A stretch of 64,000 bases of DNA from an uncultured Prevotella sp. (GTDB taxonomy: Bacteria; Bacteroidota; Bacteroidia; Bacteroidales; Bacteroidaceae): the NCBI GenBank assembly GCA_946404925.1, contig CAMJFM010000007.1:2662-66661 (forward strand), in the 5' to 3' direction. Below the pieces are notes generated by a model. That model was not told the origin of the DNA and ran no database searches. It worked only from the letters and a program-made list of their open reading frames with translations. Below are positions 3,862 through 25,437 of the stretch, piece by piece (within the stretch, counting starts at the first letter, position 1; every line of letters starts with the position of its first letter). The translations under genes were made by a program, and so were the position numbers.

Positions 3862-6771
3862 TCATCGGCGCCAGTTGCCACGGCCCTGGTTGCCACGATT
3901 ATCGCGGCTACCCCACTTCTGATCGTAACGGTTCTCGGTATCGACCTTTCCGCCGAACATATTGAGGCGGTAGCGCACGTGGAGCATGGCATACGAGTTA
4001 ACACTGTTGTAGCGGGTATCGCTGCGGCCTGAGGCATTGACCCAACGCTCGTAGTTGCTCTGCTGACCAAGCAAATCGTAGAAGTTAAGCGCCACGATGA
4101 GCGACTTGGACTTGAGGAACGCCTTTGACACCTGACCATTCCAGATGAGCTCGTTGGTATTCATCGACGAGTCGTTATAGCCTCGGCGGCTGCGCTCATG
4201 AATCTCGCTGCTGATTTCGAAGCCCGATGGCAACTTGATGAGGAACTGACCACCGTAGTTGAACTGCCAGGTGTCGAGATCGGCACTGGGCTGCAACTCA
4301 TTGCGCGAGTGCTGGTAGTTAAGACGGCCATCGAGGGTAATCTCGAGCCAGTCGTTACGATAGCCCAGAGATATGCGCTCGTTGAAGTTGGTGGTACGGG
4401 TGGTATTCTTCGCGGCATCGGCCTGCTGCTGCGCCACATAGCTCACAAAGTTGTTGTAGCGGATGCGGGTATCGGTGCCCACATTCCAATGGGCAGTAGA
4501 GTCGAGCGCGGTATTAAATGTAAAACCGGCATTGACATTCCAGTTGCCATTGATATTCTCGGGCTGGGTGATGCTACCACCGGTTTCGGGGTTATAGCGC
4601 ACCAGGTTAGAGATGGAGTTGCGGATGTGGCGGTAGTTGGCATAGACCACGATGCTACGCTTATAGCGCACAATATAGTTATTGTAATAGCCATTGAGCG
4701 AGCTGGTGAACTGCGGCTTCAGTCCGGGATTACCCTTGGTAATGTAGAGCGGGTTTGAATCGTCGGTAATGTCGAGCAGCTGCGTCATCTCGGGCTGACG
4801 GGTATCGCCGCGATAGTGCAGCCACAGATTGCTCTGGTCGCTGAACTTATAGTGGAAGTCGAGTGTGGGCGTCAGGTTGGTGACATTGCGCACGGTATCG
4901 ACATACACGCCACGATAATCCTGAATGAAGTTAGAGTGTTGCGGCTGAACGAGGAAACCGATGTTATAATCGTACTTCTCAACACGATGGCGCAGGTTGA
5001 TGCGCATGTTGTGGGTGTAGTTCTTATACTCGGAGTAGCGACTGAGATCGCGGTCGAGATAGCTATCGAGGGTTGACCATACTGACGAGAGCCAGGGATC
5101 CCAAGTGCGATACTCGGGGGTGATGCCGGCAAAGATGTTCTGTGGCATGCCGCTGAAGTCGTAAGTCAGACGGTCGCTCTTGTTCTGATTGTATCGCAGT
5201 TCGTAGCTGAGCTGCAGGTGAGCACCCTTCCACAGCGGTTCGCTATAAGATGTGCGTACCACATAGCCGCTGTTATCGGACGGCGTGGTGTTGTAGCGGG
5301 CGGTGAAATAGGTAGAGTCCTGACCCGACACGTCTTTTACACGATACAGGTGAACCTCATCATCGCTAACGCTCTGGTTCTCGCTGTTGCCAGCGCTACC
5401 CTCGAAACGCAGGATGACATTACGACCACGGGGATTGAGGCGGCGGTACAACTGGAGCATGGCCCAGGCATTCTTGTTCTCGCCATAAGTCAGGTTGGCA
5501 TTGATATTGGTGTTGACCAGATACTGACCTAACGACGATAGCTGCGACAGGGGATCTTCGACATAGAGATAGGGGTCAGAATCGAATGTGGCAGCACTAG
5601 ACTGGGTAGTGGCATCATTAGTGCCATAGCTGCCATTGGCGCGAATCAGGATGTTAGTCAGGCTGTCGGGTTTCCACTCAAAACGCATGTTCCCCCACCA
5701 GTTATTGCTGCGGGTATAGTTGGCCTGCAGCTTATTAGAGAAGGTACGCGAGGTTTCGCTATAGAAGTTCTCGCTGGCATTCTCGGTCTGGTTATCACCA
5801 CCACGATGGTTCCAACGTAAGCTGAAATCGAGCTTCACCTTATCGTTATTGTCGTAATTGAAGTTGGTGCCCAACATTTTGCGGGCATTAAGTCCGCGAC
5901 GGTTCCACCAACCGGCATTCTCCTCCTTATTATTAAAGTTGCCCAGCAGCACAAAGCGGGTCTTATCGGTAAAGCTGCTGGCCATGCCGCGCGAGGCATA
6001 GCGGTGCTTGGTGCCGCCGGCAATGTCGAGATTAGTCATATAGCCGCGGTTCATACCTTTCTTGATAGAGAAGTCGAGCACGGTTTCCTTCTCGCCATCG
6101 TCGATACCGGTGATACGCGACTGATCGCTCTGCTGGTCGTAGAACTTCATGTTCTGGATGATGTTAACAGGGATGTTCTTGAGTGCCGTCTCCACATCGC
6201 CCAGCATAAACTCCTTACCATCAATCAGAATCTTCTTCACTTCCTTACCATTGATGGTGATGTTGCCATCCTCATCGACCTCGGCACCGGGGATGCGCTT
6301 GATGAGTTCCTCGATAGGTGAACCCTCGGGCGTGCGATAGGCCTCGGGGTTATAGACCAAGGTATCCTTCTTGACGATGACCTGAGCGGCACGACCGGTG
6401 ATGACGGCCTCCCGCAGCATGATACTCTCGGACTCCATGAGCAAGTTGCCAAGGTCTTGACTGGCATTACGGCGCAGAGACACCTCGCGCTCGATGGTCT
6501 GATAGCCTACTGATGAAATACGGAGGCGATAGATGCCACTGCGAGGAGCCTCGATATAGAAGTTTCCACGCTCGTTGGTAACAGTGCCGCCCACAAAGGT
6601 GCTATCGGATGCGGTGAACAACTGGATGGTGGCCTGAACCATGGGCTCCTTGAACTCAGAGTCGAGCAGCTGGCCACGGATAGTAAGTTTGCGATCCTCG
6701 GGCTCAGGCTGCGCCTGAGCGGTAAGGAAAGATAAGCATGTAACTAGTAATAGAACAATCTTGTTTTGCAT
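3862..6771 (-). CDS. Outer-membrane beta-barrel protein (TonB-dependent-receptor-like) with N-terminal carboxypeptidase-regulatory-like domain
   Basis: Signal peptide; IRGQLLDSEFKEPMVQATI; plug-like IEELIKRIPGAEVDEDGNITINGK; alternating beta-strand C-terminus (YAMLHVRYRLN). Confidence 0.8.
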   Translation of the reverse strand: MQNKIVLLLVTCLSFLTAQAQPEPEDRKLTIRGQLLDSEFKEPMVQATIQLFTASDSTFVGGTVTNERGNFYIEAPRSGIYRLRISSVGYQTIEREVSLRRNASQDLGNLLMESESIMLREAVITGRAAQVIVKKDTLVYNPEAYRTPEGSPIEELIKRIPGAEVDEDGNITINGKEVKKILIDGKEFMLGDVETALKNIPVNIIQNMKFYDQQSDQSRITGIDDGEKETVLDFSIKKGMNRGYMTNLDIAGGTKHRYASRGMASSFTDKTRFVLLGNFNNKEENAGWWNRRGLNARKMLGTNFNYDNNDKVKLDFSLRWNHRGGDNQTENASENFYSETSRTFSNKLQANYTRSNNWWGNMRFEWKPDSLTNILIRANGSYGTNDATTQSSAATFDSDPYLYVEDPLSQLSSLGQYLVNTNINANLTYGENKNAWAMLQLYRRLNPRGRNVILRFEGSAGNSENQSVSDDEVHLYRVKDVSGQDSTYFTARYNTTPSDNSGYVVRTSYSEPLWKGAHLQLSYELRYNQNKSDRLTYDFSGMPQNIFAGITPEYRTWDPWLSSVWSTLDSYLDRDLSRYSEYKNYTHNMRINLRHRVEKYDYNIGFLVQPQHSNFIQDYRGVYVDTVRNVTNLTPTLDFHYKFSDQSNLWLHYRGDTRQPEMTQLLDITDDSNPLYITKGNPGLKPQFTSSLNGYYNNYIVRYKRSIVVYANYRHIRNSISNLVRYNPETGGSITQPENINGNWNVNAGFTFNTALDSTAHWNVGTDTRIRYNNFVSYVAQQQADAAKNTTRTTNFNERISLGYRNDWLEITLDGRLNYQHSRNELQPSADLDTWQFNYGGQFLIKLPSGFEISSEIHERSRRGYNDSSMNTNELIWNGQVSKAFLKSKSLIVALNFYDLLGQQSNYERWVNASGRSDTRYNSVNSYAMLHVRYRLNMFGGKVDTENRYDQKWGSRDNRGNQGRGNWRR

Positions 6772-13300: not shown

Positions 13301-13507
13301 GCCGTTTATGGCGATGCAAAGGTAACAACTTTATTTGAAATTAATGTCAGTTTTACAACTTTTTTGGCGAATTAAATATTATAAACTTAATGAATTTACG
13401 ACCAATTATTGTTACGAAATGATCATAATTAACCTTTTGTTTTATAACTTTTATTTACCAAATCTTTAAAAAAACCGAAAAAGATTTGGAAGTTTCGATT
13501 ATTTTTC

Positions 13508-13515
13508 CTATTTTT
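13508..13515 (+). promoter_or_regulatory. -7 promoter box for the uncharacterised operon
   Basis: TATTTTTG in an AT-rich intergenic region, with an upstream TTTG. Confidence 0.5.
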
Positions 13516-13574
13516 GTCACGGTATAATTACCAATTGTTAAAATATTGACCTATAACATACAAGTAATAAGACG

Positions 13575-14390
13575 ATGAGATCTATTAATAAGATTATTTC
13601 AATTACACTTCTGGGGCTGTTATTCCCACTGACCATTGGTGCTCAGAACAAACATTTTGAGGGCGAGATAACATACAACATGTCTATTGCTCTCGACAAG
13701 ACTGCGCGCAAATTCCTGAAAGGAAGTGATGGAGCCTACACAATGAAGACTATCTACAAAAATGGTGACGAACTTTGTCATGAAGATTATTTCGGAATGA
13801 TCACCCTGACATCCAGAAACAAGGATTCTGTCTACATGTATCTCCCCGAGATAAAGAAAGGTTACAAATGTTCATACTCTGCTTCGGTCACAAACTTCAA
13901 GGAATCCAGGACAGTTAACGAAAGTTCGGTTAAAGAAACTGGCGAGACCAAAGATATGTATGGCATAACCTTTAAGAGATTTAAGGGCACCGAGATATTA
14001 GAAGCCGATATGCTTGTAGCCAGAATTCCTATGACCGAGGAGCACGACTATTGGGTTTGCACCGATTACGACGAGAACTGGCTGATGAGCATCCGTATTC
14101 CAGGCATGATTCTCAGTCTCGATTGGTTTGCTAAGGGAAAAATACCCATTCTTGGCGAAATGACCCAACATTTCGATATGAGCATCAAGGAACTGAAGGC
14201 TCGCGAAGTCAGCGATGATGAGTTTGCCATACCCGGTGATATCTCTTTTACTACGGTCAGCGACATGAATACTGCCGAGGCCAAGTTGAAGAAGGATCAT
14301 AAGAAACTCATGAAGTCGAAGGGCAAGAAAGTGGGCGAGAATATCCAGACCCGTGGTGCAGGTAAGACAAAAGGCGACTGGGACTTCTAA
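13575..14390 (+). CDS. Secreted hypothetical protein, DUF4412/GLPGLI-like fold suspected
   Basis: Signal peptide, then FEGEITYNM; pattern YMYLPEIKKGY...GITFKRFKG...YWV...IPGMIL. Confidence 0.5.
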   Translation: MRSINKIISITLLGLLFPLTIGAQNKHFEGEITYNMSIALDKTARKFLKGSDGAYTMKTIYKNGDELCHEDYFGMITLTSRNKDSVYMYLPEIKKGYKCSYSASVTNFKESRTVNESSVKETGETKDMYGITFKRFKGTEILEADMLVARIPMTEEHDYWVCTDYDENWLMSIRIPGMILSLDWFAKGKIPILGEMTQHFDMSIKELKAREVSDDEFAIPGDISFTTVSDMNTAEAKLKKDHKKLMKSKGKKVGENIQTRGAGKTKGDWDF

Positions 14391-14412
14391 CAATCAATAA
14401 GGAACAACAGAA

Positions 14413-15624
14413 ATGAAGAAACTGCTAATAATCCTTGCATTGGGATTGATGGTCCAGACCAGCTTTGCCCAAGACGATGAGAACTACAAGTATATGAGAG
14501 GTTCGCTCTGCATCATGATGGTAGAGCACCCCACACTTGAATTCAACGACCAGATTGAGAAGGTCTTTGAATCTATGCCCATCCCAAACCGCTTCAACAG
14601 TCACGATCTGGGTGTAAGAGTACTGAGTTTCCCAAACAACGACGACCAGGTGGCCAATCTGAAGATATTCAGCAACGAGAACCAGTTGGCCAAGCGTATT
14701 GTATCAAAGTGGTTTGGCCGCAACAAACATACCGGTTCGTTCAATACCGACCTGTTGAGAGAACGCGGACACTACAGCGCCACAAAGATAGATGTCAAGG
14801 CCGCCATGGCTCAGCAAAGAGGTATGGCCGTGCTCGAAGATATGGGCGAGAACCTGATTGGTCATACTTACTGGGTTGTAAACGACATCAGATACGTGAA
14901 TCAGGGCAACTTCTTCAAGAGTGTAAAAGACGTGGCCAGTGCAGCCATCAGCACAAAGGGCAACGGCACATCATCACTCGAAGCAACCTTAGGCATCGAT
15001 TTCGAAGATACAGCGATGGATCTTCTCGACAATATCAAGGGTTTCCGCGTAAAGATAACCTCTCACCTGTTCCGTCTGAAGTGGGATGAGGAGACATCTA
15101 ACACCTTCTATAGTCAGTATTATACTGAGACACCAGAGGAAGATGCCGATAAGGTTAGCGGATTCAAGGAGGATAACAACCTGTTCTCTATGGAATATGT
15201 TGGTTCGGTTACCAGCACCAGCAGCAAGACTTCTGTTTTAGGCGTTACCACCAACGAGCAGATGATTCGCAAGGTGTGTACACGTGCTCTCGACAAGAAC
15301 ATCGCCGACCTGCAGCATAAGTTTGCCGACTTCCGCATCAAGGCTCCGCTCATCAGCATAGAGCCACTAAAGGCATACGTTGGCATGAAGGAAGACATCA
15401 ACGAGAAATCACGCTACGAGGTTCTGGAAGCCGTTCCCGACGATCGTGGCGTAACTACCTATAAGCCAGTTGGAATTATCAAGCCTATCAAGGGCAAGAT
15501 ATGGGACAACCGATTTATGGCTGATGAAGAGAAGACGACCGAAGCTGCCCTCGACGGCACCTATTTCGAAGTGGTGTCGGGAAAGGGCTTCTACCCTGGA
15601 ATGCTTATTCGCGAGACTAAATAA
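14413..15624 (+). CDS. Secreted hypothetical protein with FlgT-C-like C-terminal beta domain
   Basis: Signal peptide; C-terminal AYVGMKEDINEKSRYEVL...KGFYPGMLIRE resembles FlgT/CsgG-associated C-terminal domains (by eye). Confidence 0.45.
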   Translation: MKKLLIILALGLMVQTSFAQDDENYKYMRGSLCIMMVEHPTLEFNDQIEKVFESMPIPNRFNSHDLGVRVLSFPNNDDQVANLKIFSNENQLAKRIVSKWFGRNKHTGSFNTDLLRERGHYSATKIDVKAAMAQQRGMAVLEDMGENLIGHTYWVVNDIRYVNQGNFFKSVKDVASAAISTKGNGTSSLEATLGIDFEDTAMDLLDNIKGFRVKITSHLFRLKWDEETSNTFYSQYYTETPEEDADKVSGFKEDNNLFSMEYVGSVTSTSSKTSVLGVTTNEQMIRKVCTRALDKNIADLQHKFADFRIKAPLISIEPLKAYVGMKEDINEKSRYEVLEAVPDDRGVTTYKPVGIIKPIKGKIWDNRFMADEEKTTEAALDGTYFEVVSGKGFYPGMLIRETK

Positions 15625-15657
15625 TCCTATTATTAACAACTTAAAACATTATTAATT

Positions 15658-16278
15658 ATGAAAGCTATTAAATTTTTTGCAGCATTATTCATGATGTTTG
15701 CCGTATCGGCAAGTGTAAATGCTCAGGAACTGAGTAAGGCTAACCAGAAGTTGCTGAAGAAGCAGCTGAAGGAGTTCAAGGCTGATGGTTGGAAGGTTAA
15801 CCCAGGTCAGCTACCACTTGAGACACAGCTCACCAAGGCATTCACCACCCAGTCAGAAGTTGACGCTATGGGTTACGAGGTTTGGATTGTAGGCGAAGGC
15901 CGCAGCACTGGTAGTGTTTACGACGCAGCCAGAACTCAGGCTATGACCGTTGCCAAGGGCGAAATTGCTACCAAACTGAGAACCGACATGACTTCTACCA
16001 TCGAGCAGGATCTGGCCAACGAGCAGTTCGGACCCGACGAGGCTGAGTCAATCGCAAAGACCATCGTAAGCCAGCAGGGCCGTAGTATCGACCAGCAGCT
16101 CAACCGTCCTAAGACTCTGATGGAGTGCTTCCGCAAGCTGCCTAATGGCAATACCGAGGTACTGATTCGTTGCGCTATCTCAGCCGACACAGTTAGCAAG
16201 CTCGCTAAGGCTGCTATCCAGCAGGCTCGCAGAGACAATCTGCTGAAGGATGTTGAAAGAGTTAAGAGTCAGAACTAA
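15658..16278 (+). CDS. Secreted LPP20-like protein
   Basis: Signal peptide without a lipobox; WIVGEGRSTG-SVYDAARTQAMTVAKGEIA helix pattern typical of LPP20-like domains. Confidence 0.55.
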   Translation: MKAIKFFAALFMMFAVSASVNAQELSKANQKLLKKQLKEFKADGWKVNPGQLPLETQLTKAFTTQSEVDAMGYEVWIVGEGRSTGSVYDAARTQAMTVAKGEIATKLRTDMTSTIEQDLANEQFGPDEAESIAKTIVSQQGRSIDQQLNRPKTLMECFRKLPNGNTEVLIRCAISADTVSKLAKAAIQQARRDNLLKDVERVKSQN

Positions 16279-17180
16279 TGAAGCAATTGCTCATACTGAT
16301 CACCATATTCTCCTGGGCACTGGGGACCAGCGCCCAGGAGAAGGGTAAGGTAAAAACGGTGGAGGATAGCTATCTCTACGAGATCCCCTCCAACGTTTCC
16401 TATGCCCAGGCTTGTCAGTTTGCGCTCGTAAAAGCGCAGAATGCAGCTATCGAGAAGGAGTTCGGTACGTCTGTAAGTCAAAACGATGTCGTTCTGATTT
16501 CAAACGAGAACGGCCAGTCGAGTACCTCCTTCCATTCCATGACAAGTGGTCAGGTGAGAGGTGTGTGGCTGGGCGATGTGGCCGAACCAAAATTTGAGCG
16601 CGTGCTCCACGAAGGCAGAGATCTGCTGAAGGTTACCGTTAAGGGTAAGATCAGAGAACTGGTTACTGCTGGTGTTGAGTTCGAGGCCAAACCACTACGT
16701 GTCCAGCCAGACAAGAAACTCGTGTCCGACACCTTTAAGAATGGTGAGGACTTTTTCCTTTATTTCAAGTCACCCGTCGATGGATATCTTACAGTTTTCC
16801 TGTTCGACATCCTAACCAATCAGGTATTCTGCATGCTGCCCTATCAGAGTTCGGGCAAGGGTTCCTTTGCCGTTACCCACGACAAGGAGTACTACCTGTT
16901 CTCGGCAGCAAAGGCCGATCCTAACGAAGGCGAGGTCGACGAGGTTGTACTTACCTGTACAGAGGGGAATACCGAAGAATACAATAACCTATATGTAATC
17001 TTCTCGCCTAATAACTATGCAAAAATAAGCTCTAAGGTTGGTCAGAAACAACTTACTGACGACCTGATAGTCCCGAGTTCGCTTGACTACAAGGAATTCA
17101 ACGCCTGGCTGACTAAGTATCAACAGAAGGACGAACAGATGCAAGTAGAACGCATCCCTATCAGAATCGAAAACAATTAA
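16278..17180 (+). CDS. Secreted protein with LPP20-like N-terminus and DUF4384 C-terminal domain
   Basis: FKNGEDFFLYFKSPVDGYLTVFLFD...VFCMLPY is DUF4384-like; start overlaps the previous stop (TAATG). Confidence 0.65.
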   Translation: MKQLLILITIFSWALGTSAQEKGKVKTVEDSYLYEIPSNVSYAQACQFALVKAQNAAIEKEFGTSVSQNDVVLISNENGQSSTSFHSMTSGQVRGVWLGDVAEPKFERVLHEGRDLLKVTVKGKIRELVTAGVEFEAKPLRVQPDKKLVSDTFKNGEDFFLYFKSPVDGYLTVFLFDILTNQVFCMLPYQSSGKGSFAVTHDKEYYLFSAAKADPNEGEVDEVVLTCTEGNTEEYNNLYVIFSPNNYAKISSKVGQKQLTDDLIVPSSLDYKEFNAWLTKYQQKDEQMQVERIPIRIENN

Positions 17181-17191
17181 ACTTATACAAT

Positions 17192-19564
17192 ATGAAAAAG
17201 CTATCGCTCACATTGCTCAGTCTGGTTCTGTTCATTGGCATGGCCTATGCACAGGGTCAGAGGCCTCAGCGACAAAGAGGCAGTCTGAAACAGCAGGTTC
17301 AGAACAAGCAGAAAATGAATTACGATGATTTCGTAAATGATGCCAACAAGAAGTACGAGGAATTCCGCGACAGCGTCAACAAGAAGTATGCCGACTTCAT
17401 GGAGAAGGCTTGGAAGGACTACCCCATCGAGGATGCTGTAGACCGCCCAAAGGAAGACGACCTCAAGCCTATCGAATACGACAAGATGACCGATGAGGAT
17501 TATCTTGAGGACATGAAGCGCCAGGAGGCCGAAAAGAAGCTGGCCGAAGAACAGAAGAAACGCGAAGAAGAGCAGGCCCGACTGATTGCCGAGAAGAAGA
17601 AGCAGGAGGAGGAGCAGGCCCGACTGGCTGCTGAACAGAAACAACGCGAAGAGGAGCAAGCCCGACTGCTGGAAGAGCAGAAAAAGCAGGAGGAAGAGCA
17701 GGCTCGCTTAGCTGCAGAGAAGAAGAAACAGGAGGAAGAACAGCTTCGCATAGCTGCTGAGAAGAAAAAACAGCAAGAAGAGAAGGCCCGCATACTGGCT
17801 GAAAAGAAAAAGCAGCAGGAAGAAAAGGCCAAACTGCTGGCTGAACAGAAGAAGCAGCAAGACGAGTTGAAACGTCTGGCCGCCCTGAAGAAGCAGCAGG
17901 AAGAGCAGCAGAAGTTGCTCGAGAAGCAGCAGAAGAAGGAAGAGCTGGCCAAACTGTTAGCCGAAAAGAAGAAGCAGGAAGAGCAGGAGAAGTTGGCTCT
18001 GCAGAAGCAGAAGGAACAGGAGCGCCAGCAGAAACTGCTTGAGGAGCAGCAGCGTAAGCAAGAAGAAGAGGCCCGACTGCTGGAAGAGAAGCTGAAAAAG
18101 CAGGAAGAGCAGCAGCGCCTGTTAGAGGAGAAGAAGAAGCAACAGGAAGAGAAAGCTCGTTTGCTGGCTGAAAAGAAAAAGCAGCAGGAAGAGCAGAAGC
18201 GCCTGTTAGAGGAGAAAAAGAAACAGCAGGAGGAGCAAAAACGTCTCTTAGCTGAACAAAAGAAGAAGCAGGAAGAGCAAGAGCGTCTGTTAGCTGAACA
18301 GAAGAAGAAGCAGGAGGAGCAGGAGCGCCAGCTGGCTGAGCAGAAAAAGAAGCAACAGGAAAAGCAGAGCAAGCCTATCGAGGCTGTAGTTGTGCCCGTT
18401 GTGCTCACCGTTCCCCCACAGCCAAAGCCACAGAATCCAATCGTAGAGAATAAGGTATCGATGGCTACCAGCGACTTCGATTTCTACGGCACACCTATGA
18501 AGGTAAGATGGGGTAATGCTGAGAAGTTCAAGCTTAATGGCACATCAAAGAAGGATATCTCTGATGCATTCCTCGAGCTCACCGATAAGGGTTACACCAA
18601 TCTGGTTCACGACTGTCTGGAGCTTCGCAAGGAGTACAAGCTTTGCGACTGGGCTTATTATAAGATGTTGCAGAACATCGCCGAGAAGGCTTGTGGCAAG
18701 GGCACCAACGAGGCCATCTTCCTCCAGGGTGTATTGCTCAACCAGTCAGGTTATCAGATTCGTTTCGCACTCGAAGACAATACCAAGCTGCACATCATGT
18801 CGCGCATGGACGGATTCCCATACGATCGCGGCTATTTGACCGCCGATGGCAAGTTGTTCTTCCTGATGGACGGTTGCAAGGCCAAGAACCTCACCGTTTG
18901 CGATGCAGCTTATCCTGGCGAGCAGATGATGAGCCTCGGAATAGCCGAACAGCCTGAATTAAAGAAGAATCTGTCGGACAAGCGTACCGTTATCTCGCGC
19001 TTCGTCAACGTATCGGCCGATATGCAGATGAACAAGAACCTGATGGACTTCTATACCGACTATCCTACATCTTACGATGGTAAGGACATGATGACTCGTT
19101 GGGCTTACTACGCTAACACCCCTGTAACAGCCGAGATAAAGGATAAGGTTTACCCACAGCTCAAGCAGCAGATAGGTAACGCACCAAAGCTGATGGCAGC
19201 CAACATGCTGCTGAACTGGGTTCAGATGGGACTTACCTATGCCTACGACGAAAAGGTTTGGGGTCACGACCGTGCATTCTTTGCCGAGGAGAGCTTGTTC
19301 TATCCATTCTGCGATTGTGAAGACCGTTCTATCCTCTTCTCACACCTCATTCGCGACCTGCTCGACCTCGATGTAGTACTAGTTTATTACCCAGGTCACC
19401 TCTACACAGCAGTATGCTTCAACGAGGATGTTACAGGCGATTACATCATGGTTAACGGTCGCAAGTTCACCGTTGCCGATCCTACCTATTACAATGCCAA
19501 CGTAGGTAAGACCATGAGTAAGATGGACAACTCGAAGGCCAAGGTAATCCTCCTGAAGCGATAA
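17192..19564 (+). CDS. Secreted transglutaminase-like (BTLCP/LapG-like) cysteine protease with a ~300-aa E/K/Q-rich helical insert
   Basis: Signal peptide; about 20 copies of a 14-aa repeat (EEEQARLLAEKKKQ-like); C-terminal DCEDRSILF...PGHLYTAV...VADPT supplies a Cys-His-Asp triad. Confidence 0.7.
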   Translation: MKKLSLTLLSLVLFIGMAYAQGQRPQRQRGSLKQQVQNKQKMNYDDFVNDANKKYEEFRDSVNKKYADFMEKAWKDYPIEDAVDRPKEDDLKPIEYDKMTDEDYLEDMKRQEAEKKLAEEQKKREEEQARLIAEKKKQEEEQARLAAEQKQREEEQARLLEEQKKQEEEQARLAAEKKKQEEEQLRIAAEKKKQQEEKARILAEKKKQQEEKAKLLAEQKKQQDELKRLAALKKQQEEQQKLLEKQQKKEELAKLLAEKKKQEEQEKLALQKQKEQERQQKLLEEQQRKQEEEARLLEEKLKKQEEQQRLLEEKKKQQEEKARLLAEKKKQQEEQKRLLEEKKKQQEEQKRLLAEQKKKQEEQERLLAEQKKKQEEQERQLAEQKKKQQEKQSKPIEAVVVPVVLTVPPQPKPQNPIVENKVSMATSDFDFYGTPMKVRWGNAEKFKLNGTSKKDISDAFLELTDKGYTNLVHDCLELRKEYKLCDWAYYKMLQNIAEKACGKGTNEAIFLQGVLLNQSGYQIRFALEDNTKLHIMSRMDGFPYDRGYLTADGKLFFLMDGCKAKNLTVCDAAYPGEQMMSLGIAEQPELKKNLSDKRTVISRFVNVSADMQMNKNLMDFYTDYPTSYDGKDMMTRWAYYANTPVTAEIKDKVYPQLKQQIGNAPKLMAANMLLNWVQMGLTYAYDEKVWGHDRAFFAEESLFYPFCDCEDRSILFSHLIRDLLDLDVVLVYYPGHLYTAVCFNEDVTGDYIMVNGRKFTVADPTYYNANVGKTMSKMDNSKAKVILLKR
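17513..18369 (+). repeat. Degenerate 42-nt (14-codon) coding tandem repeat region
   Basis: Recurrent gaagaagcaggaggaagagcag / gcccgactg units; the antisense shadow ORF is correspondingly Cys/Phe/Ser-periodic. Confidence 0.85.
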
Positions 19565-19568
19565 GCCT

Positions 19569-20774
19569 ATGAAGGTGCCCTTCTGGAATACAATAAAAGC
19601 GTGGATACGTCAGCGACGGAGATTGGTAACACTCTCCGTGCTGACTAGCACGGTTATCATCATATTTACCTATGTGATGGGTAACTCGGGCTATCCACTA
19701 CCAGGAGAAACGGGCGCCCTGAAGCAGATTACCGACTACAAGAAGTTTCTGGGCATGCAGATAGGCAACGTGCCCGATAGCATCCTGTTTGTCAACGTGT
19801 GTTACGACAAGATGCTCACACCTTACGAGGAAAACGAGGTGCCTGTGGGCAACATGGTTATTACCGACCGCGAGAAGCTGCTGCAGTTCCTCACCATAGC
19901 CAAGAAGGCCAACAACTACCGCTACATCTTTATGGATGTGTTCTTCGAAGAGGGCATGGAGACCGAGTACGACTCAGCACTCTTCCACACTATCACTTCG
20001 ATGGACCGTATCGTCATCCCCAAGCACAAGGGCGTAAACATGTGCGACACCACGCTCTATCAGAAGGCCGCTAATGCCGATTACGCCACCACCTGGCAGG
20101 CCCTCACTTTCTCGCGCTATCAGTACATACACGATGAGGACGAATCCGTGGCACTAAAGATTTATCAGGACCGCTTTGGTTCCGACATCAAGAAGCACAT
20201 GGGTGGATTGTGGTATACCGACAATGGCCGCTTGTGCCAGAATAGCGCCACGCTGTTGCTGCCTATCCGCATCACGGGCAGTCTGCTCGACGAGGAGGGA
20301 CAAGTGCGCGAGCGCAACTACATCTATCTGAGTGCCGACCTGCTCGACCTCGACGAGGTGATGCCCGTTAGCGAGCAGATTGAAGACAAGCTGATAGTGA
20401 TAGGCGACTTTAAGAGCGACGTACACTCCACGTTCCTTGGCATGCAGCCCGGATCGTCGATACTCTTCAATGGATATATAGCCCTATCGCAGGGTGCACA
20501 TCTGGTTAACTGGCCTTACATGGGTATACTGTTCGTCATCTACATCATCATCGGACTGTTCTACCTCTCGGGCCACTCCTTCTCATCGATGGTCATGAAC
20601 CCTTGGCTCAGCATCCTGCTATCGTTTCTCAGCACGGCTACGGTATTCCTGATTATAGCCCTTGTGGCCAGCTGGTACGATCTGGCGTTCAACATGTGGG
20701 TTCCCACTACCGTCTACTCTCTCTACGACACATTCATGCAGAAGTATAACATCTATAAAAATAAATCGAAATGA
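19569..20774 (+). CDS. CHASE2-like inner-membrane sensor lacking a cytoplasmic catalytic domain
   Basis: N-terminal TM; periplasmic IFMDVFF...LIVIGDF-SDVHSTFLG-QPGSSILFN (CHASE2-like); three C-terminal TM helices; very short cytoplasmic tail. Confidence 0.6.
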   Translation: MKVPFWNTIKAWIRQRRRLVTLSVLTSTVIIIFTYVMGNSGYPLPGETGALKQITDYKKFLGMQIGNVPDSILFVNVCYDKMLTPYEENEVPVGNMVITDREKLLQFLTIAKKANNYRYIFMDVFFEEGMETEYDSALFHTITSMDRIVIPKHKGVNMCDTTLYQKAANADYATTWQALTFSRYQYIHDEDESVALKIYQDRFGSDIKKHMGGLWYTDNGRLCQNSATLLLPIRITGSLLDEEGQVRERNYIYLSADLLDLDEVMPVSEQIEDKLIVIGDFKSDVHSTFLGMQPGSSILFNGYIALSQGAHLVNWPYMGILFVIYIIIGLFYLSGHSFSSMVMNPWLSILLSFLSTATVFLIIALVASWYDLAFNMWVPTTVYSLYDTFMQKYNIYKNKSK

Positions 20775-21418
20775 AACGACTACTCTTACTCAGTTGCCTT
20801 GGCATGTGGCTCAGCTACGCCAGTGCAGACAATTACAAGGTGCTGTTCGTCAACGATGCCAACCTTACTTATAATAATGGAAAAGCAGTCAAAGTGGGCG
20901 ACACCTTCAGCGATGTTGATGCCATCAAATGGCAGAAGGACAAGCAAGCCGTCAAGGTGTTCAACCTTACCACCAAGAAGCAGATGCTGATGCTTGGCAA
21001 GCAGTATATGCGCAAAACGGGTATGGAAGCACTCATCAGCAGCAAGCGCCTGTCTACCAACGACTTTATGGACACCAGCGATGCGCCTAAGACCATCTAC
21101 GAGAAGCTAGGCAGCGTGTTCGACAGTCAGTACGATCTGCTCGACCCCATCGAGCTTCCTGCTGATGTTGAGCTGAACGACAAGTGCTACTTCCAGGCCA
21201 CCTATAAGTATGGCGACACCATGCTCACCAAGAAGCTTAAGAGCAAGAACGGCAACACCGTTATCCTCGACAAGTCTATCTTCGAGGTTGATGGCAAGCA
21301 GTTAGGCCCTCGCGACGTCATCCTCTCCATCGAGTACGTCAACACCGAGGCTGGCATGCCCATCTTCGTTAAGGATGGCATCGAGGTAACCTACATCCCC
21401 GACACCCTCGACGAATAA
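20771..21418 (+). CDS. Secreted hypothetical protein (beta-rich N-terminus, loosely FecR-like)
   Basis: Signal peptide; ATGA overlap with the upstream stop; YKVLFVN...VKVGDTF. Confidence 0.5.
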   Translation: MKRLLLLSCLGMWLSYASADNYKVLFVNDANLTYNNGKAVKVGDTFSDVDAIKWQKDKQAVKVFNLTTKKQMLMLGKQYMRKTGMEALISSKRLSTNDFMDTSDAPKTIYEKLGSVFDSQYDLLDPIELPADVELNDKCYFQATYKYGDTMLTKKLKSKNGNTVILDKSIFEVDGKQLGPRDVILSIEYVNTEAGMPIFVKDGIEVTYIPDTLDE

Positions 21419-21446
21419 TTCATCACACCTTACATTTAATATTCCG

Positions 21447-21489
21447 AGTGCTGCAGGTTTTTTCTAGCTCCTTGCAGCACTTTTCTTTT
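21447..21489 (+). terminator. Intrinsic terminator closing the seven-gene operon
   Basis: AGTGCTGCA...TGCAGCACT stem followed by TTTCTTTT. Confidence 0.7.
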
Positions 21490-21555
21490 ATTATTGTTTG
21501 GCCAGTTTGCGGATTATTGTTACCTTTGCGGCCGAAATTTTTAAAAACCTAAATT

Positions 21556-23313
21556 ATGTTGAAGAGAAACCTATTTGCCATCGGCGTATTACTAGCCACC
21601 CAGTTCATGGTAGCTAAGGCCGATGTAGACCCTAATTTCCACATTTATCTTTGTTTCGGGCAATCAAACATGGAGGGCAATGCCCAATGGGAAGATGTTG
21701 ACACTGTAGTTGACTCGCGATTCCAGATGCTGGCTACCACCGATTTCGACAACCCCAAGCGTACCATGGGCAACTGGTATACAGCCAACTGTCCCATCGT
21801 AAGCCCTATAGGCAAACTTGGTCCAACCGACTATTTTGGTCGCACCATGGTGGCCGCCATGCCCACCAACGTTAAGATTGGCGTTGTGGCTGTGGCTATG
21901 GGCGGAAGCCCTATCGAGATGTTCGACAAAGACAAGTATGAGCAGAAACTGGCCCAGAATCCTAACGAATGGTGGGCCCAGATATCAAAGAACTACTATG
22001 GCAGCAACCCTTACGGTAGACTGATTGATATGGCCAAGAAGGCACAGGAATCTGGCGTTATCAAGGGCATACTGCTGCATCAGGGATGCTCAAACTGCGG
22101 TGATCCCAACTGGCCAAATATGGTCAAGAAGATATATAACGACATGCTTACCGACCTGAACCTGAAGGCAGAAGATGTGCCTCTGTTTGTTGGCGAGACC
22201 GAGTACGAGAATATGGGCGGAGGCTGCTCTGGCCATAATGCGGTGGTAGCCCAGATACCATCGGTCATCCCAACGGGTCATGTGGTAAGCGCCGAGGGTA
22301 TTCCTGGCAATGGCACCGATGCCTGGCACTTCTCAGCAGCAGGCTATCGCACATTGGGTAAGCGTTATGCCTACGAGGCCTTGAAGGTGATGGGAAAGGA
22401 TACCAAAGCCGACGCCGACTACAAGATGGCTGATAATCTGAAGAAATTCTTCAAACTGGAGAGCTTTGAGAATGCCGATGACATGACAGTAAGACTTGGC
22501 AGCACAAAGCGCTTGGCCGTTACGGGTAAGTTTGCCGATGGCCACACCGAACTGCTTACCAACGATGCCACCATCAGCAGCAACGACTTCACCATCGAAG
22601 ATGGCGTGCTGAAGGCAACCGAGGCCAAGAAAGGCGTGGTATCGATTGCTTACACCGATTTCCTAGGCAATCAGCTCCAGAAGGACATCAATGTTGAGGT
22701 GTCTGATCAGGGCCCCAACCACGTGCTGGTAGTTGATAATGGTACGGCTGGCTCAAACTCGTGGGACAAACAATGCAACACCATGCTCAATGCATCGATG
22801 ACCATTGGCAAGACCTATATCGTTACAGCTCGTATCAAGGCCGACAATCCTGGCGAGTGTGCACTTTGGCCCATCTGGACCACAAGTCCAAAGAAAAACC
22901 AATGGGGTGGTAGCGAGGATGTACAGTATCTGGCCGCAGTCAATCTGAAATCAGACTTCGATGAATACACTTGGAAGTTCACCGCCAACTTCGCTATCGA
23001 CAAGATTCAGTTTGCCTTCGGACTCATTGGCGGCAAGGTTTACTTCGACGATGTGTCGTGTGTAGAGGAAGGCACCACCACCGAGATGGTCATTAATGGC
23101 AACTTCGAGAGCGACGACCTCTCTAAGTGGGAAGTCATCAGTTGGAATGGTCAGAAGATGAGCATCCAGGAGTACGGCGTTACCTCCGGCATCAAGCAGA
23201 TTTCAGCCAGCAAGCTCCAGAGCAACGTCCGCTACAATCTGGCCGGCCAGGTGGTAGACGAGAACTACAAAGGCCTCATCATCCAGAACGGCCAGAAACG
23301 ATTGAATAAATAA
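21556..23313 (+). CDS. CE6/SASA-type acetylxylan esterase with Ig-like domain, CBM4-like module and T9SS C-terminal domain
   Basis: CFGQSNMEG (SGNH nucleophile), GILLHQG, DAWHF; CTD GVTSGI...YNLAGQVVDENYKGLIIQNGQK; own -7 box TACCTTTG at 21521-21528. Confidence 0.88.
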   Translation: MLKRNLFAIGVLLATQFMVAKADVDPNFHIYLCFGQSNMEGNAQWEDVDTVVDSRFQMLATTDFDNPKRTMGNWYTANCPIVSPIGKLGPTDYFGRTMVAAMPTNVKIGVVAVAMGGSPIEMFDKDKYEQKLAQNPNEWWAQISKNYYGSNPYGRLIDMAKKAQESGVIKGILLHQGCSNCGDPNWPNMVKKIYNDMLTDLNLKAEDVPLFVGETEYENMGGGCSGHNAVVAQIPSVIPTGHVVSAEGIPGNGTDAWHFSAAGYRTLGKRYAYEALKVMGKDTKADADYKMADNLKKFFKLESFENADDMTVRLGSTKRLAVTGKFADGHTELLTNDATISSNDFTIEDGVLKATEAKKGVVSIAYTDFLGNQLQKDINVEVSDQGPNHVLVVDNGTAGSNSWDKQCNTMLNASMTIGKTYIVTARIKADNPGECALWPIWTTSPKKNQWGGSEDVQYLAAVNLKSDFDEYTWKFTANFAIDKIQFAFGLIGGKVYFDDVSCVEEGTTTEMVINGNFESDDLSKWEVISWNGQKMSIQEYGVTSGIKQISASKLQSNVRYNLAGQVVDENYKGLIIQNGQKRLNK

Positions 23314-23321
23314 AAAAATAG

Positions 23322-23539
23322 CTCATCTCTCAAGAAATCTCTCAAAACGCCTTTATTTACAGGCATTCCGAGAGAATGGAGATGCTGAAAATCTCTCCCT
23401 AATCCCTCCCTAATCTCTCAAGGATCCCTCATAGCTACATGAGAGATTGCTGAGAGATTAGGGAGGGATTCCAAATATCTCTCATGCCTCTCAAACCCTT
23501 TATACACGGGCGTTTCAAGAGAATTCTTGAGAGATTGAG
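23322..23539. mobile_element. Nested-palindrome intergenic element (MITE/REP-like, non-autonomous)
   Basis: Imperfect 26-bp outer inverted repeats (23326-23351 / 23509-23534) and a perfect 20-bp inner inverted repeat (23401-23420 / 23451-23470); no ORF. Confidence 0.55.
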
Positions 23540-23612
23540 GGATTTTTTGTTATAACAACAAAAATACTTATCTCAATAGTTCTACATATTACATAAAAAA
23601 GCCGCATATTTG

Positions 23613-23693
23613 TTCCCAGTAAGGGAACAATTGATTCCCAACTTGGGAACATTTTATTCCCAGTTAGGGAACATTTCATTCCCAAGCTGGGAA
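23613..23693. repeat. Four palindromic TTCCC-N5-GGGAA units with exact 22-bp period
   Basis: Units start at 23613, 23635, 23657 and 23679. Confidence 0.9.
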
Positions 23694-23763
23694 GTATTAA
23701 AAATAAATTCGCCATATTCTTTGCACTTTGCTGGTTTTTTATTATCTTTGCAACCGAAAAGAA

Positions 23764-25437
23764 ATGGAACTAATAATACTACGTAGCAAAATGAAACTAG
23801 ATTATCGCCGATTGGTGTTGCTGGTTGCTGTATGCGCTGGGATGCTGACTACCATTGGAGTCAGAGCACAATCAAACCTGCAGATACAGCAGATTACCAT
23901 TGGCCTTGACGCCAACTATGCTCCACTGCAATCGGTTGACAAAAACGGACTGCCACACGGATACGACGTAACCTTTACCCGCGCGCTGATGAGTCGCATG
24001 GGCGTAAAGTTCTACTATGTGCCGAACTCGTGGAAGAAAGTGGAAGAGCAGGTGATGAAAGGAGACATAGACCTGGCAATGATGGTATATTCGGCTTATC
24101 GCAAGGATAGCGTGTTCTACTCGCGCCCGATATTCCGACTGTATTATCAGGTGGTATACCGCAAGGCTGACTATAAGAACTTTGACTTCCGCAACATAAA
24201 AGGTAAGACATTTGCCTTCTTGAACTCGCGCCCAATAGGCGAGCTGATGGAACGCGAAGGCGGCAAAGCCATAAAAGTGTACGACCTGGACGAGGCGATA
24301 CAAGACCTGGCCAAGGGCATGTACGATGCCGTGATCTGCTATCGCTATCAAGCCAAATACCTTATTGAGCACTACCATCTGGACCAGTTGCAAGCAGAAG
24401 ACATATCGATGCAACCCCGCGAGTACTGCTACGTGAGCCACAACCAAGAGCTGATAGAGGACATCAGTCGTGAGATAGCTATGATGGAGGCCGAAGGCAT
24501 GATAGACGAGATATACGGCGACGGCATCATGGCACCCACAAAAAATCAGATTCCCGTGTGGGTTTGGTATCTGTTTGGCGGACTGGGCGTGCTGTTTGTT
24601 GGGGCATACATTATCCTATCTTACAGGTCGCGCAAGAAGTTGAAGATAGCCAACGCCATGCTCGAGACCAACTACAAGATTCTGGAAATGAGCCATATGG
24701 AGCTGGAGGAGACCAACCGAAAACTGATAGCTGCAACCGAAAGGGCCGAGGAGTCATCGAAGATGAAGAGCAACTTCATCAAGCAGATATCGCACGAGAT
24801 ACGTACGCCACTGAACATTCTGAGTGGATTTACACAGGTACTGACCACATCGGGGGTAGAGCTGAACGAAAACGAGAAGAACAAGATAACTCACGATGTA
24901 GTTGAGAACACCAACCGCATTACCGGCTTGGTAAACAAGATGCTGGAGCTGAGCGATGCTGGCAGCCGAAACGTGATAGAGCGTAAAGACAAGGTGATGC
25001 CCGCCCAGATAGCTGGCGACGCCATCGCCGCGACAAGCATAGCCGACACTAAAGGCATAGACTTCGAACTATCGATAGAGCCCAAAGCCGAGAACCTGAT
25101 TGTTACGACCAATCTGAATTCGGCCGTACGATCGCTCTCGCTGATACTGGACAACGCCCGCAAGTTTACAGAGAATTCGGTCAATAGGAGCATCAAACTA
25201 AGTGTTAAGGCCAAACCCGAAACCATAGAGCTGGCTGTAGAAGACAACGGTATAGGCGTGCCCCCCGAAGAGGCCGAACGCATATTCGAAGAGTTTGTGC
25301 AGCTTGACGAGTTCTACGAGGGAACGGGTATAGGATTAACAATAGCCCGAAGCCTGGCCCGCCGTATGGGTGGCGATGTGATACTTGACACCAGCTACCA
25401 TCCAGGAGCAAGATTTGTTCTAACATTACCAAGATAA
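23764..25437 (+). CDS. Sensor histidine kinase with periplasmic solute-binding (family 3) domain; no receiver domain
   Basis: GLDANYAPLQ...GYDV; TM; H-box FIKQISHEIRTPLN; N-box LDNARKFT; G boxes EDNGIG and GTGIGL. The start was moved downstream of the -7 box TATCTTTG, so 23764 or 23791 is more likely than 23728. Confidence 0.9.
   Translation: MELIILRSKMKLDYRRLVLLVAVCAGMLTTIGVRAQSNLQIQQITIGLDANYAPLQSVDKNGLPHGYDVTFTRALMSRMGVKFYYVPNSWKKVEEQVMKGDIDLAMMVYSAYRKDSVFYSRPIFRLYYQVVYRKADYKNFDFRNIKGKTFAFLNSRPIGELMEREGGKAIKVYDLDEAIQDLAKGMYDAVICYRYQAKYLIEHYHLDQLQAEDISMQPREYCYVSHNQELIEDISREIAMMEAEGMIDEIYGDGIMAPTKNQIPVWVWYLFGGLGVLFVGAYIILSYRSRKKLKIANAMLETNYKILEMSHMELEETNRKLIAATERAEESSKMKSNFIKQISHEIRTPLNILSGFTQVLTTSGVELNENEKNKITHDVVENTNRITGLVNKMLELSDAGSRNVIERKDKVMPAQIAGDAIAATSIADTKGIDFELSIEPKAENLIVTTNLNSAVRSLSLILDNARKFTENSVNRSIKLSVKAKPETIELAVEDNGIGVPPEEAERIFEEFVQLDEFYEGTGIGLTIARSLARRMGGDVILDTSYHPGARFVLTLPR

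Follow-up and report, generated by a model that had tools for sequence, protein, structure and literature searches.

Several described systems resemble parts of the locus studied here. In LapD-LapG a transglutaminase-like periplasmic protease (LapG, of the BTLCP type) is held by an inner-membrane receptor; LapD carries HAMP-GGDEF-EAL, and the system includes a LapA-type adhesin and type I secretion genes. LPP20 of Helicobacter pylori and FlgT of Vibrio are envelope scaffold proteins. In Trichodesmium a metacaspase fused to CHASE2 has been recorded (PMC3501461), DUF4384 is found fused to caspases (PMC7475262), and caspase/CHAT proteins are typical effectors in predicted conflict systems of bacteria (PMC8195603); none of the published CHASE2/DUF4384 metacaspase cases has a demonstrated function (PMC3501461, PMC7475262, PMC8195603). 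The Burkholderia 'BiofilmReg' operon encodes a CHASE2 histidine kinase and an adjacent periplasmic LysM-FecR protein (PMC5192318).

We analysed an operon of an uncultured Prevotella sp. from the rumen (GCA_946404925.1). The window, i.e. the whole stretch of DNA analysed, comprises 64,000 nt (contig CAMJFM010000007.1, positions 2,662 to 66,661, forward strand), and coordinates count from its start. Seven co-directional ORFs, g1 to g7, span 13575-21418. The explanation we tentatively prefer, giving it a chance not far from even, is that this operon is a modular envelope (extracytoplasmic) sensor-cysteine-protease system expressed as a single transcription unit; no description of a modular sensor-protease system of this kind was found in the literature searched. 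The fold and family assignments of the window's own proteins all lie below significance (g5, Foldseek E=0.1; g6, no Pfam match). The features are as follows.

13485..13516, + strand: promoter of Bacteroidota type, TTTG (-33), N20, TATTTTTG (-7), read from the sequence
13575..14390, + strand: g1, 271 aa, secreted (signal peptide), narrow family, accessory
14413..15624, + strand: g2, 403 aa, secreted, large dark family, accessory
15658..16278, + strand: g3, 206 aa, secreted, weakly LPP20-like, core
16278..17180, + strand: g4, 300 aa, secreted, DUF4384-like C-terminal half, frequent but not universal
17192..19564, + strand: g5, 790 aa, secreted
17464..18381, + strand: repeat stalk of g5, a 14-aa unit repeated about 20 times with a period of 42/84 nt (Tandem repeats finder)
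19316..19480, + strand: putative catalytic triad of g5, invariant in 13/13 diverse sequences, codons checked
19569..20774, + strand: g6, 401 aa, one TM, ectodomain of about 270 aa, three TM, divergent CHASE2-like
20771..21418, + strand: g7, 215 aa, secreted partner of g6, two beta-sandwich domains
21446..21490, + strand: intrinsic terminator, 12-bp stem, 13-nt loop, UUUUCUUUU

The original prediction had described seven co-directional and tightly packed genes with one promoter in AT-rich DNA and one terminator, six products with a signal peptide and one polytopic protein. All this is borne out. The gaps from g1 to g7 are 22, 33, -1, 11, 4 and -4 nt. The stretch upstream of g1 has 29-33% GC and contains TTTG at 13485-13488 followed, after N20, by TATTTTTG at 13509-13516. 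The block ATTTGGAAGTTTCGATTATTTT..TAT.TTTG is kept upstream of g1 in the window and in the related locus L004; L003 and L006, both without g1-g2, have it upstream of g3. Some relatives retain a remnant of the g2 3'-end downstream of the shared promoter. Upstream matches to sigma-70 hexamers are at chance level, the sigma-70 model being irrelevant to Bacteroidota. At the other end, the hairpin 21446-21482 with its U-tract reaches -17.8 kcal/mol (z = -4.9, 0/200 shuffles equally stable), and the gene downstream has its own TAnnTTTG box.

Signal peptides are present in six of the seven proteins, g6 alone being polytopic with 1+3 membrane segments. As no lipobox Cys is conserved in the signal-peptide proteins of the operon, these are not lipoproteins; nor did NCBIfam detect a T9SS C-terminal domain in the seven. 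As read from its sequence, g1-g7 is a single transcription unit of exported or membrane-embedded products. None of the proteins scores above any cut-off of Pfam, NCBIfam or PADLOC, and the precomputed Pfam annotation is empty for orthologues of g3-g7. The expected absence of a known pathway also stands, 0/7 proteins mapping to a characterised system. The flanking genes (acetyl-CoA hydrolase, HlyIII, SASA/CBM esterase) are housekeeping and carbohydrate-active.

The operon is not conserved as a block. Of 19 related loci from rumen Prevotella/Xylanibacter, none lacks g5, g6 or g7, and 18 have g3; the contig of the remaining one (L005) stops inside g5. Most of these loci, but not all, have g4. Since g1-g2 occur in only two of the 19 and g4 is dispensable, the seven genes do not constitute a fixed system, contrary to what had been proposed.

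The family of g1 is small (12 homologue clusters). The DUF4412-like label given to g1 is unsupported: no Pfam match was obtained at E<=1, and 0/12 clusters have a Pfam domain. On another contig (C1), a paralogue of g1 that is 25% identical forms a pair with a paralogue of g2. The g2 family is large (1355 representative clusters), with fusions to UVR, DUF2846, PEGA, LysM and OMP_b-brl; at a distant locus (L040) a g2-like gene adjoins a g5C gene and a g3-like gene. The claim of FlgT-C likeness for g2 is left almost without support, as FlgT_C (PF16538) has no match in g2 itself and matches one of 48 fused family members (4.9e-6).

LPP20 (PF02169) matches neither g3 nor the N-terminal half of g4 above its cut-off, both of which had been presented as LPP20-like. 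The label remains a weak one for g3: the best PDB match of its profile is LPP20 (5ok8, E=0.23), and Pfam searches with members of the g3 family matched two paralogues to LPP20 (E=0.042) and one member to FlgT_N (2e-4). Neither protein is a lipoprotein, the signal peptides ending in A|Q without a lipobox Cys. DUF4384 (PF14326), also predicted in g4, receives indirect support: it scores 16 bits on the window g4 (E=0.013, cut-off 27) and 27.2 bits on a paralogue 29% identical to it. The alleles of g4 fall into two classes (74% vs 95-97% identity), neighbouring genes being mostly 92-98% identical.

The protein g5 consists of an N-terminal helical motif, an E/K/Q-rich repeat stalk, an alpha/beta subdomain and a transglutaminase-like core. 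On either side of the stalk (E76 K68 Q58 among 305 residues) stands the direct repeat CAAGCCTATCGA, 12 nt long and exact, at 17464 and 18370. The stalk length ranges from 259 to 511 aa across close strains, mainly in 28-aa steps, whereas orthologues in general cover 0 to over 800 residues; the 482-aa orthologue of L019 has no room for a stalk. The putative triad is encoded at 19316-19318 (Cys709, within a DCED motif), 19397-19399 (His736) and 19478-19480 (Asp763). In the AF2 model of a fragment (pLDDT 82, pTM 0.83) helix 298-314 has Cys299 at its N-terminus, His326 starts a strand and Asp353 is just past a strand, i.e. the predicted structure has the Cys-His-Asp order of the papain/transglutaminase type, with a helix beginning at the Cys.

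Similarity searches with g5 gave weak signals. Transglut_core (PF01841) is sub-threshold only (6/13 members, best E=0.033), BTLCP (PF06035) has no HMM match, and the PDB sequence search gave none. Foldseek returned nothing at E<=0.001; its best matches (E=0.1-2) are nearly all of the transglutaminase fold (TG2, sea-bream TGase, menin, LapG, XPC, vasohibin). The description of g5 as a transglutaminase-like Cys protease with a helical stalk is thus indirectly supported by the triad and by fold matches below significance, with HMM scores below cut-off. The triad may also serve transamidation, or be non-catalytic.

Hydropathy places the hydrophobic segments of g6 at residues 18-38, 310-339, 345-372 and 356-378. 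This topology fits CHASE2, in which a single TM precedes an extracytoplasmic domain of about 250-300 aa and three more TM follow it. CHASE2 (PF05226, cut-off 26.3 bits) has no match in the window g6; it scores 28.6 bits, above the cut-off, on the homologue G016, 25 and 24.5 on G357 and G305, and E=1.6e-6 on a 60%-identical orthologue, and it is precomputed on several homologues at 58-63% identity. By this transitive homology g6 appears to be a divergent CHASE2-like protein. After the last TM some 12-20 residues remain, with no domain match for a cytoplasmic output such as a kinase, cyclase or GGDEF/EAL. Of the output-less CHASE2-like receptor that had been announced, the output-less part is therefore confirmed, and the CHASE2 part is backed indirectly by homologues and topology.

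The start of g7 overlaps the stop of g6 (ATGA). The AF2 model of g7 (pLDDT 80) has two beta-sandwich domains, for which Foldseek found only generic Ig-like sandwich matches; Pfam, two profiles against PDB and Foldseek gave no likeness to FecR/PupR. A g7-type gene adjoins g6 in 32/33 loci, two of them from outside the order, and the exception is a contig with a g6 fragment only. By sequence comparison the g6-g7 pair is the deepest apparent invariant of the operon.

Within the order, 76/301 genomes have a g5 relative and 6/301 a g6 relative, so that g5 and g6-g7 are separable modules. Being commoner, and often alone or beside PEGA/OMP genes, g5 does not need g6-g7. The g6-g7 pair itself adjoins a cysteine protease in at least 28/33 loci. 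In 21 loci this is a g5-type gene. In others it is TPR-CHAT (L051, L052, L054), C14 (L048, L055, L057 and weakly L056), four C14 genes in a different order (L062), or two C14 genes and a papain C1-DUF4384 gene (L053), which shows DUF4384 also fused to papain C1. At five g6 loci (L044-L047, L061) no protease is recognisable by available models. The proteins g3 (LPP20-like) and g4 (DUF4384) accompany the cysteine proteases, each of the 13 protease proteins examined has a signal peptide at its start, and OmpA-MORN genes lie within or flank the operon in related loci. The neighbourhood check that had been called for, co-occurrence with caspase/CHAT and OmpA genes, is thus positive (Peptidase_C14, CHAT, papain C1-DUF4384, OmpA-MORN). 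Throughout the phylum, the secreted cysteine proteases next to g6-g7 have interchangeable folds. The linkage of g6-g7 to such proteases, seen in most of the related genomes analysed, suggests an unstudied envelope protease system. It backs the protease-receptor part of the proposed envelope scaffold, protease and receptor; a role in sensing or surface-protein processing would go further.

In such a sensor-protease system g6-g7 would detect a periplasmic or envelope cue and, because there is no cytoplasmic output, would presumably act by direct protein contact, which may hold, release or position the protease. The protease would then cleave envelope proteins, cross-linking being less likely, and g1, g2, g3 and g4 could be scaffolds, adaptors, substrates or inhibitors. 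Candidate roles are envelope remodelling, stress response, and phage- or damage-triggered self-destruction. A bolder proposal, which we regard as possible though on the unlikely side, is that g6-g7 represents a sensor class so far unrecognised, CHASE2-type and output-less, which steers secreted cysteine proteases by extracytoplasmic contacts alone, with the LPP20-like and DUF4384 proteins as adaptors or substrates. If true, this class would be an extracytoplasmic counterpart to cytoplasmic caspase-based death/immunity systems.

Other explanations account for part of these data. A conflict system, in which g6-g7 would sense phage or envelope damage and the secreted proteases would destroy envelope proteins, killing or sealing the cell, would give the sensor-protease explanation a specific physiological form. 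It is in keeping with the sporadic distribution of g6 (9/151 genomes of the genus, 6/301 of the order, 3/401 of the phylum), with effector proteases and ligand-binding domains (LRR, Sel1, FGE-sulfatase, WG repeats, TPR) shuffled between loci, with the dimorphic g4 alleles and polymorphic g5 stalk and, anecdotally, with the AbiH gene adjacent in the single case of L053. We nevertheless consider it improbable: none of the seven proteins matches PADLOC-DB 2.0 at E<=0.1, the flanks are without mobile-element or defence-island signs, and the caspase-type defence effectors of the cited papers are cytoplasmic whereas these proteases are all secreted. Rather less probable is a structural assembly of the envelope or surface in place of a signalling system. 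Here g5 would be a fibrillar or spacer protein, its stalk setting a distance and its transglutaminase head cross-linking it to partners in the envelope, and g2-g4 would form an outer-membrane-proximal scaffold resembling FlgT/LPP20 rings. An E/K/Q-rich stalk of about 300 residues that varies in length like surface-fibril repeats, the fusions of the g2 family to LysM, PEGA and OMP barrels, the PEGA-OMP proteins adjoining g5 relatives, and the LPP20/FlgT hints for g3 and g2 all argue for it. However, so wide a range of stalk lengths speaks against a fixed periplasmic ruler, a search for outer-membrane export signals detected neither a T9SS C-terminal domain nor a lipobox, and the pairing of g6-g7 with caspases/CHAT is left unexplained.

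The genes might also form no single system, g1-g2, g3-g4, g5 and g6-g7 being independent cassettes behind a common promoter, each of which is indeed found without the others in some genomes. This seems more doubtful still, given a gene order that the 19 close loci keep over 52-95% identity and that L055 and L057 repeat, the overlapping stop/start codons, and the recurrent re-linking of g6-g7, across orders, to cysteine proteases whose folds are unrelated. The least probable, in our view very much so, is adhesin release of the LapD/LapG type, with g6 sequestering a LapG-like g5 at the inner membrane and freed g5 cutting an adhesin. The DCED motif at the g5 Cys, the LapG structures 4fgp and 4fgq among the Foldseek matches, and the pairing of a periplasmic protease with a membrane receptor point to it. 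Against this, the g5-LapG match is weak (E=0.78, TM 0.21/0.38), none of the seven proteins matches BTLCP, HAMP, GGDEF or EAL, c-di-GMP input is impossible since g6 has no cytoplasmic domain, and genes for a LapA-like giant adhesin or type I secretion are found neither within nor beside the operon.

Compared with the described systems, our preferred sensor-protease system shares parts with each. With LapD-LapG it has in common a putative periplasmic Cys-His-Asp protease with a DCED-type motif beside a membrane receptor gene, and control by sequestration is a plausible analogy; but the receptor g6 is CHASE2-like, and g5 carries a repeat stalk and a further subdomain besides. Membership of LapD-LapG was rejected, as HAMP-GGDEF-EAL is absent from the seven proteins and LapA-type adhesin and type I secretion genes from the operon and its flanks. 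The likeness to LPP20 and FlgT is limited to small secreted proteins, g3 weakly resembling LPP20 and FlgT_N and a single g2-family member FlgT_C, with scores below cut-offs, no lipoprotein Cys in g3 and g4, and no flagellar genes in the operon or flanks. 'BiofilmReg' combines a CHASE2 membrane sensor with a dedicated secreted partner, as g6-g7 does with its CHASE2-like putative sensor. Its sensor has a PAS-HisKA-HATPase output and a response regulator, whereas g6 has neither (PMC5192318), and g7, unlike the 'BiofilmReg' partner, did not resemble FecR in profile and fold searches. In the metacaspase/orthocaspase systems with CHASE2, DUF4384 and FGE-sulfatase (PMC3501461, PMC7475262, PMC8195603), as in this operon type, a CHASE2-type sensor is linked to caspase-fold proteases, DUF4384 and a catalytically silent FGE-sulfatase are protease-linked modules, and architectures are shuffled. 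Unlike them, the operon has its CHASE2-like part as a separate output-less protein, g6, paired with the beta-sandwich g7, and its proteases are secreted, that of the window being transglutaminase-like rather than a caspase.

The operon in the window is real and conserved, and its products are envelope proteins without annotation. Its seven genes (g1 to g7) are separated by gaps of 22, 33, -1, 11, 4 and -4 nt, and signal peptides are found at the N-terminus of g1–g5 and g7.

Features of the operon (positions in the window)
13485-13488, + strand: TTTG element of the promoter, followed after 20 nt by TATTTTTG at 13509-13516 (Bacteroidota form, read from the sequence)
13575-14390, + strand: g1
14413-15624, + strand: g2
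15658-16278, + strand: g3
16278-17180, + strand: g4
17192-19564, + strand: g5, transglutaminase-like protein of 790 aa
17464-18381, + strand: stalk of g5 (residues ~96-392), made of E/K/Q-rich repeats of 14 residues (period of 42/84 nt)
19569-20774, + strand: g6, divergent CHASE2-like membrane protein
20771-21418, + strand: g7, beta-sandwich partner of g6
3' of g7: terminator, a 12-bp hairpin with a U-tract that folds at -17.8 kcal/mol (z = -4.9)

One promoter and one terminator had been proposed for the unit, and both are found: the promoter lies in the AT-rich 274-nt upstream region (29-33% GC), with the usual Bacteroidota layout of TTTG, 20 nt and a TATTTTTG-type box, and the hairpin closes the unit. 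A consensus terminator scan missed this hairpin because its loop is 13 nt long; a sigma-70 consensus scan, a model not applicable to this phylum, gave matches at chance level. The gene that follows g7 carries a TAnnTTTG box of its own. All seven proteins stay below the Pfam, NCBIfam and PADLOC thresholds, and precomputed Pfam records no domain for the orthologues of g3–g7. The fold and family assignments of the window's own proteins are sub-threshold, on a transitive or thematic basis.

Relatives of g6 occur in rumen Prevotella and Xylanibacter, e.g. X. ruminicola KHT3 and Prevotella sp. P6B1, both of them with g3–g7, and 19 species-level loci were compared (g6 identity 52-95%). g5, g6 and g7 are present at 19/19 loci, g3 at 18/19 (at L005 the contig ends inside g5), g4 inside the operon at 12/19 and g1–g2 at two only (L004 and L012). 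The original prediction of a seven-gene envelope operon is borne out in part: the operon is real, conserved and unannotated, with a conserved core of fewer than seven genes. An exact-sequence look-up of g6 in a contig index gave no match. The promoter block 5' of g1 in the window is the block found 5' of g3 in relatives devoid of g1–g2, where a g2-like remnant of some 30 nt, similar to the 3' end of that gene, lies directly downstream of this shared promoter, just before g3 (L003 around 6190-6256, and L006, aligned with 15595-15657 of the window). The common promoter block and the remnant therefore place g1–g2 inside the same transcription unit, probably lost elsewhere; the remnant points to a deletion in the relatives rather than an insertion in the window.

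g6 has the topology of CHASE2. The CHASE2 HMM scores 28.6, 25 and 24.5 bits on g6 homologues and reaches E=1.6e-6 on one 60%-identical orthologue; it has no match in the window's own g6. Few genomes carry a relative of g6 (9/151 in the genus, 6/301 in the order, 3/401 in the phylum), and every complete g6 has a g7-type gene next to it. AF2 models were built for g7 and for residues 411-790 of g5. That of g7 (pLDDT 80) consists of two beta-sandwich domains, whose structural neighbours in Foldseek are generic Ig-like folds only. PDB profile searches with g6 and g7 returned nothing significant. A FecR-like identity of g7, prompted by a KVGD-type motif and by the way CHASE2 pairs with FecR in Burkholderia, was unsupported by two PDB profile searches and by Foldseek.

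The g6–g7 pair shows a link to secreted cysteine proteases, a signal stronger and more specific than the original prediction could see. At least 28 of 33 g6 loci have a cysteine protease next to the pair. It is g5 at 21 loci (all 19 close loci, L055 and L057); caspase-type (C14), papain-type (C1) and CHAT proteins also occur:

Further cysteine proteases beside g6–g7 (by locus)
L051, L052: TPR-CHAT
L054: CHAT fragment
L053: two C14 caspases and a papain C1-DUF4384 protein
L048, L055, L057: C14
L056: C14, weakly
L062 (genome of another order): four C14 proteins

Signal peptides are carried by all 13 protease proteins examined (13/13). The window's own genome also encodes two secreted caspases on other contigs (C42:11036-12778 and C61:3683-5803; loci L021 and L022), Sel1-C14 of 581 aa and C14-DUF6175 of 705 aa.

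The Sel1-C14 gene is preceded by two unannotated secreted proteins. At L053 an AbiH gene (16776-17786, - strand) sits directly upstream of the co-directional genes C14, C14, C1/DUF4384, g6 and g7. A small secreted pair (~275 aa and ~170 aa) directly follows the caspase gene at L014:8629-9982, L055:5064-6409 and L057:3987-5339, and L019:9493-9993 carries its ~170-aa member only. Pfam found nothing in the pair proteins of L014 and L055 or in the L019 protein; a CsgG-like identity for the 274-277-aa member (L014, L055, L057) was rejected, its family profile having no PDB match. In several relatives (L003, L006, L007, L058) g7 and a SASA/CBM esterase are separated by a gene of reverse orientation, which is annotated SBP_bac_3-HisKA-HATPase_c in L058-L060. 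In the window (21556-25437) the esterase directly follows g7, and then comes a 569-aa ORF (23728-25437, + strand) with histidine-kinase-like motifs. A local rearrangement may account for the difference.

The last 380 residues of g5 align across 13 diverse sequences, with Cys709, His736 and Asp763 invariant (motifs DCEDR, PGH and ADPT); Transglut_core is matched in 6 of the 13 members, below threshold only. In the AF2 model (pLDDT 82, pTM 0.83) the Cys occupies the N-terminal end of a helix, and the His and Asp lie on strands or after them. Foldseek gave no significant match with this model, the best ones being almost all of transglutaminase fold (TG2, menin, LapG, XPC, vasohibin), and a PDB profile search with the C-terminal module (g5C) found nothing significant. 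The NCBIfam TrlF match on g5 is an artefact of the low-complexity stalk. An exact 12-nt direct repeat, CAAGCCTATCGA, brackets the stalk, which measures 259, 287, 315, 405, 427, 483 or 511 residues in close strains, mostly by steps of 28 residues (84 nt); the L019 orthologue (482 aa) is too short for a stalk, and another g5 protein reaches 1318 aa in total.

g5C forms a family of 4066 clusters at 90% identity, with relatives in 76 of 301 sampled genomes of the order (57/209 genera); among the 120 best listed clusters no Pfam assignment was found, bar one unrelated match. The commonest g5 form (~870-890 aa; distant Bacteroidales, L032, L034-L041 and L043) carries the N-subdomain/transglutaminase-like module twice in tandem and has no E/K stalk. 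A short helical motif, EE(Y/W)KKQ, follows the signal peptide in all forms. Genes of the g3-like, g4-like/DUF4384 or caspase kind are found at seven of 20 distant g5-type loci, two of the seven with caspase-FGE-sulfatase fusions and one with a g2-like gene too. Among the rest, some lie next to PEGA/OMP-barrel genes or lack any partner that could be recognised.

Among the upstream genes, g1 has 12 homologue clusters only and no domain. The family of g2 is large and unannotated (1355 representative clusters at 50% identity); some of its members are fused to UVR, DUF2846, PEGA, LysM or OMP barrels, one matching FlgT_C. A second g1/g2 pair, followed by a PEGA/OMP-barrel protein, is present on another contig of the genome. 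g3 is weakly LPP20- and FlgT_N-like. PDB profile searches with g2 and g3 gave nothing significant, and a relation of g2 to g3 or to DUF6175 (caspase-fused in this genome) was discarded (hhalign probabilities <1%). g4 is DUF4384-like (16 bits for the window protein, 27.2 bits for a paralogue) and falls into two allele classes relative to 16278-17180 of the window, at 74-78% identity (L002, L003, L006, L007, L010) and 90-97% (L004, L008, L011). At the same loci g6, g7 and most g3 copies are, unlike g4, 86-98% identical. Differences extend over the length of g4, peak at residues 61-90 and 211-240, and suggest recombination or diversifying selection.

Most economically, the operon is read as a modular envelope system, in which the CHASE2-like membrane protein and its fixed partner are associated with secreted cysteine proteases. 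We infer its mechanism as follows. Proteases of interchangeable fold would work with g6–g7, and the LPP20-like and DUF4384 proteins may serve as accessory scaffolds, adaptors or substrates; since g6 has no cytoplasmic part, any control would have to run through periplasmic or membrane contacts. A conflict or death system is compatible with the sporadic distribution of g6, the shuffling of protease partners between loci, the stalk-length polymorphism and the dimorphism of g4 (74% against 95-97% identity) amid neighbours that are mostly 92-98% identical, but PADLOC has no match and the window locus shows no defence-island context. Alternatively, the role may be structural, with a spacer of variable length, a head that cross-links and a scaffold close to the outer membrane; this reading leaves the pairing with caspases and CHAT proteins unexplained.

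With an output-less CHASE2-like protein and its fixed partner next to secreted cysteine proteases, this compact operon offers a testable handle on CHASE2, a domain not known to have acquired a ligand or a mechanism since its definition, and on bacterial caspase homologues, which have few established roles. It also gives a context to the big unannotated families g5C, g2 and DUF4384, which are common among Bacteroidales of the gut and rumen. In these bacteria, proteolysis in the envelope could influence resistance to phages, the formation of vesicles or surface remodelling.

Literature searches on LPP20 with DUF4384 and on CHASE2 with CHAT found nothing, and a PEGA/caspase match was the unrelated OCTIN protein. 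A metacaspase-CHASE2 fusion and caspase-DUF4384 and caspase-FGE-sulfatase architectures are already in surveys, which describe neither the split, fully secreted arrangement nor any function (PMC3501461, PMC7475262). The HAMP-GGDEF-EAL part, LapA-type adhesin and type I secretion genes of the LapD-LapG switch are absent here, and the likeness to that switch is one of functional analogy only.
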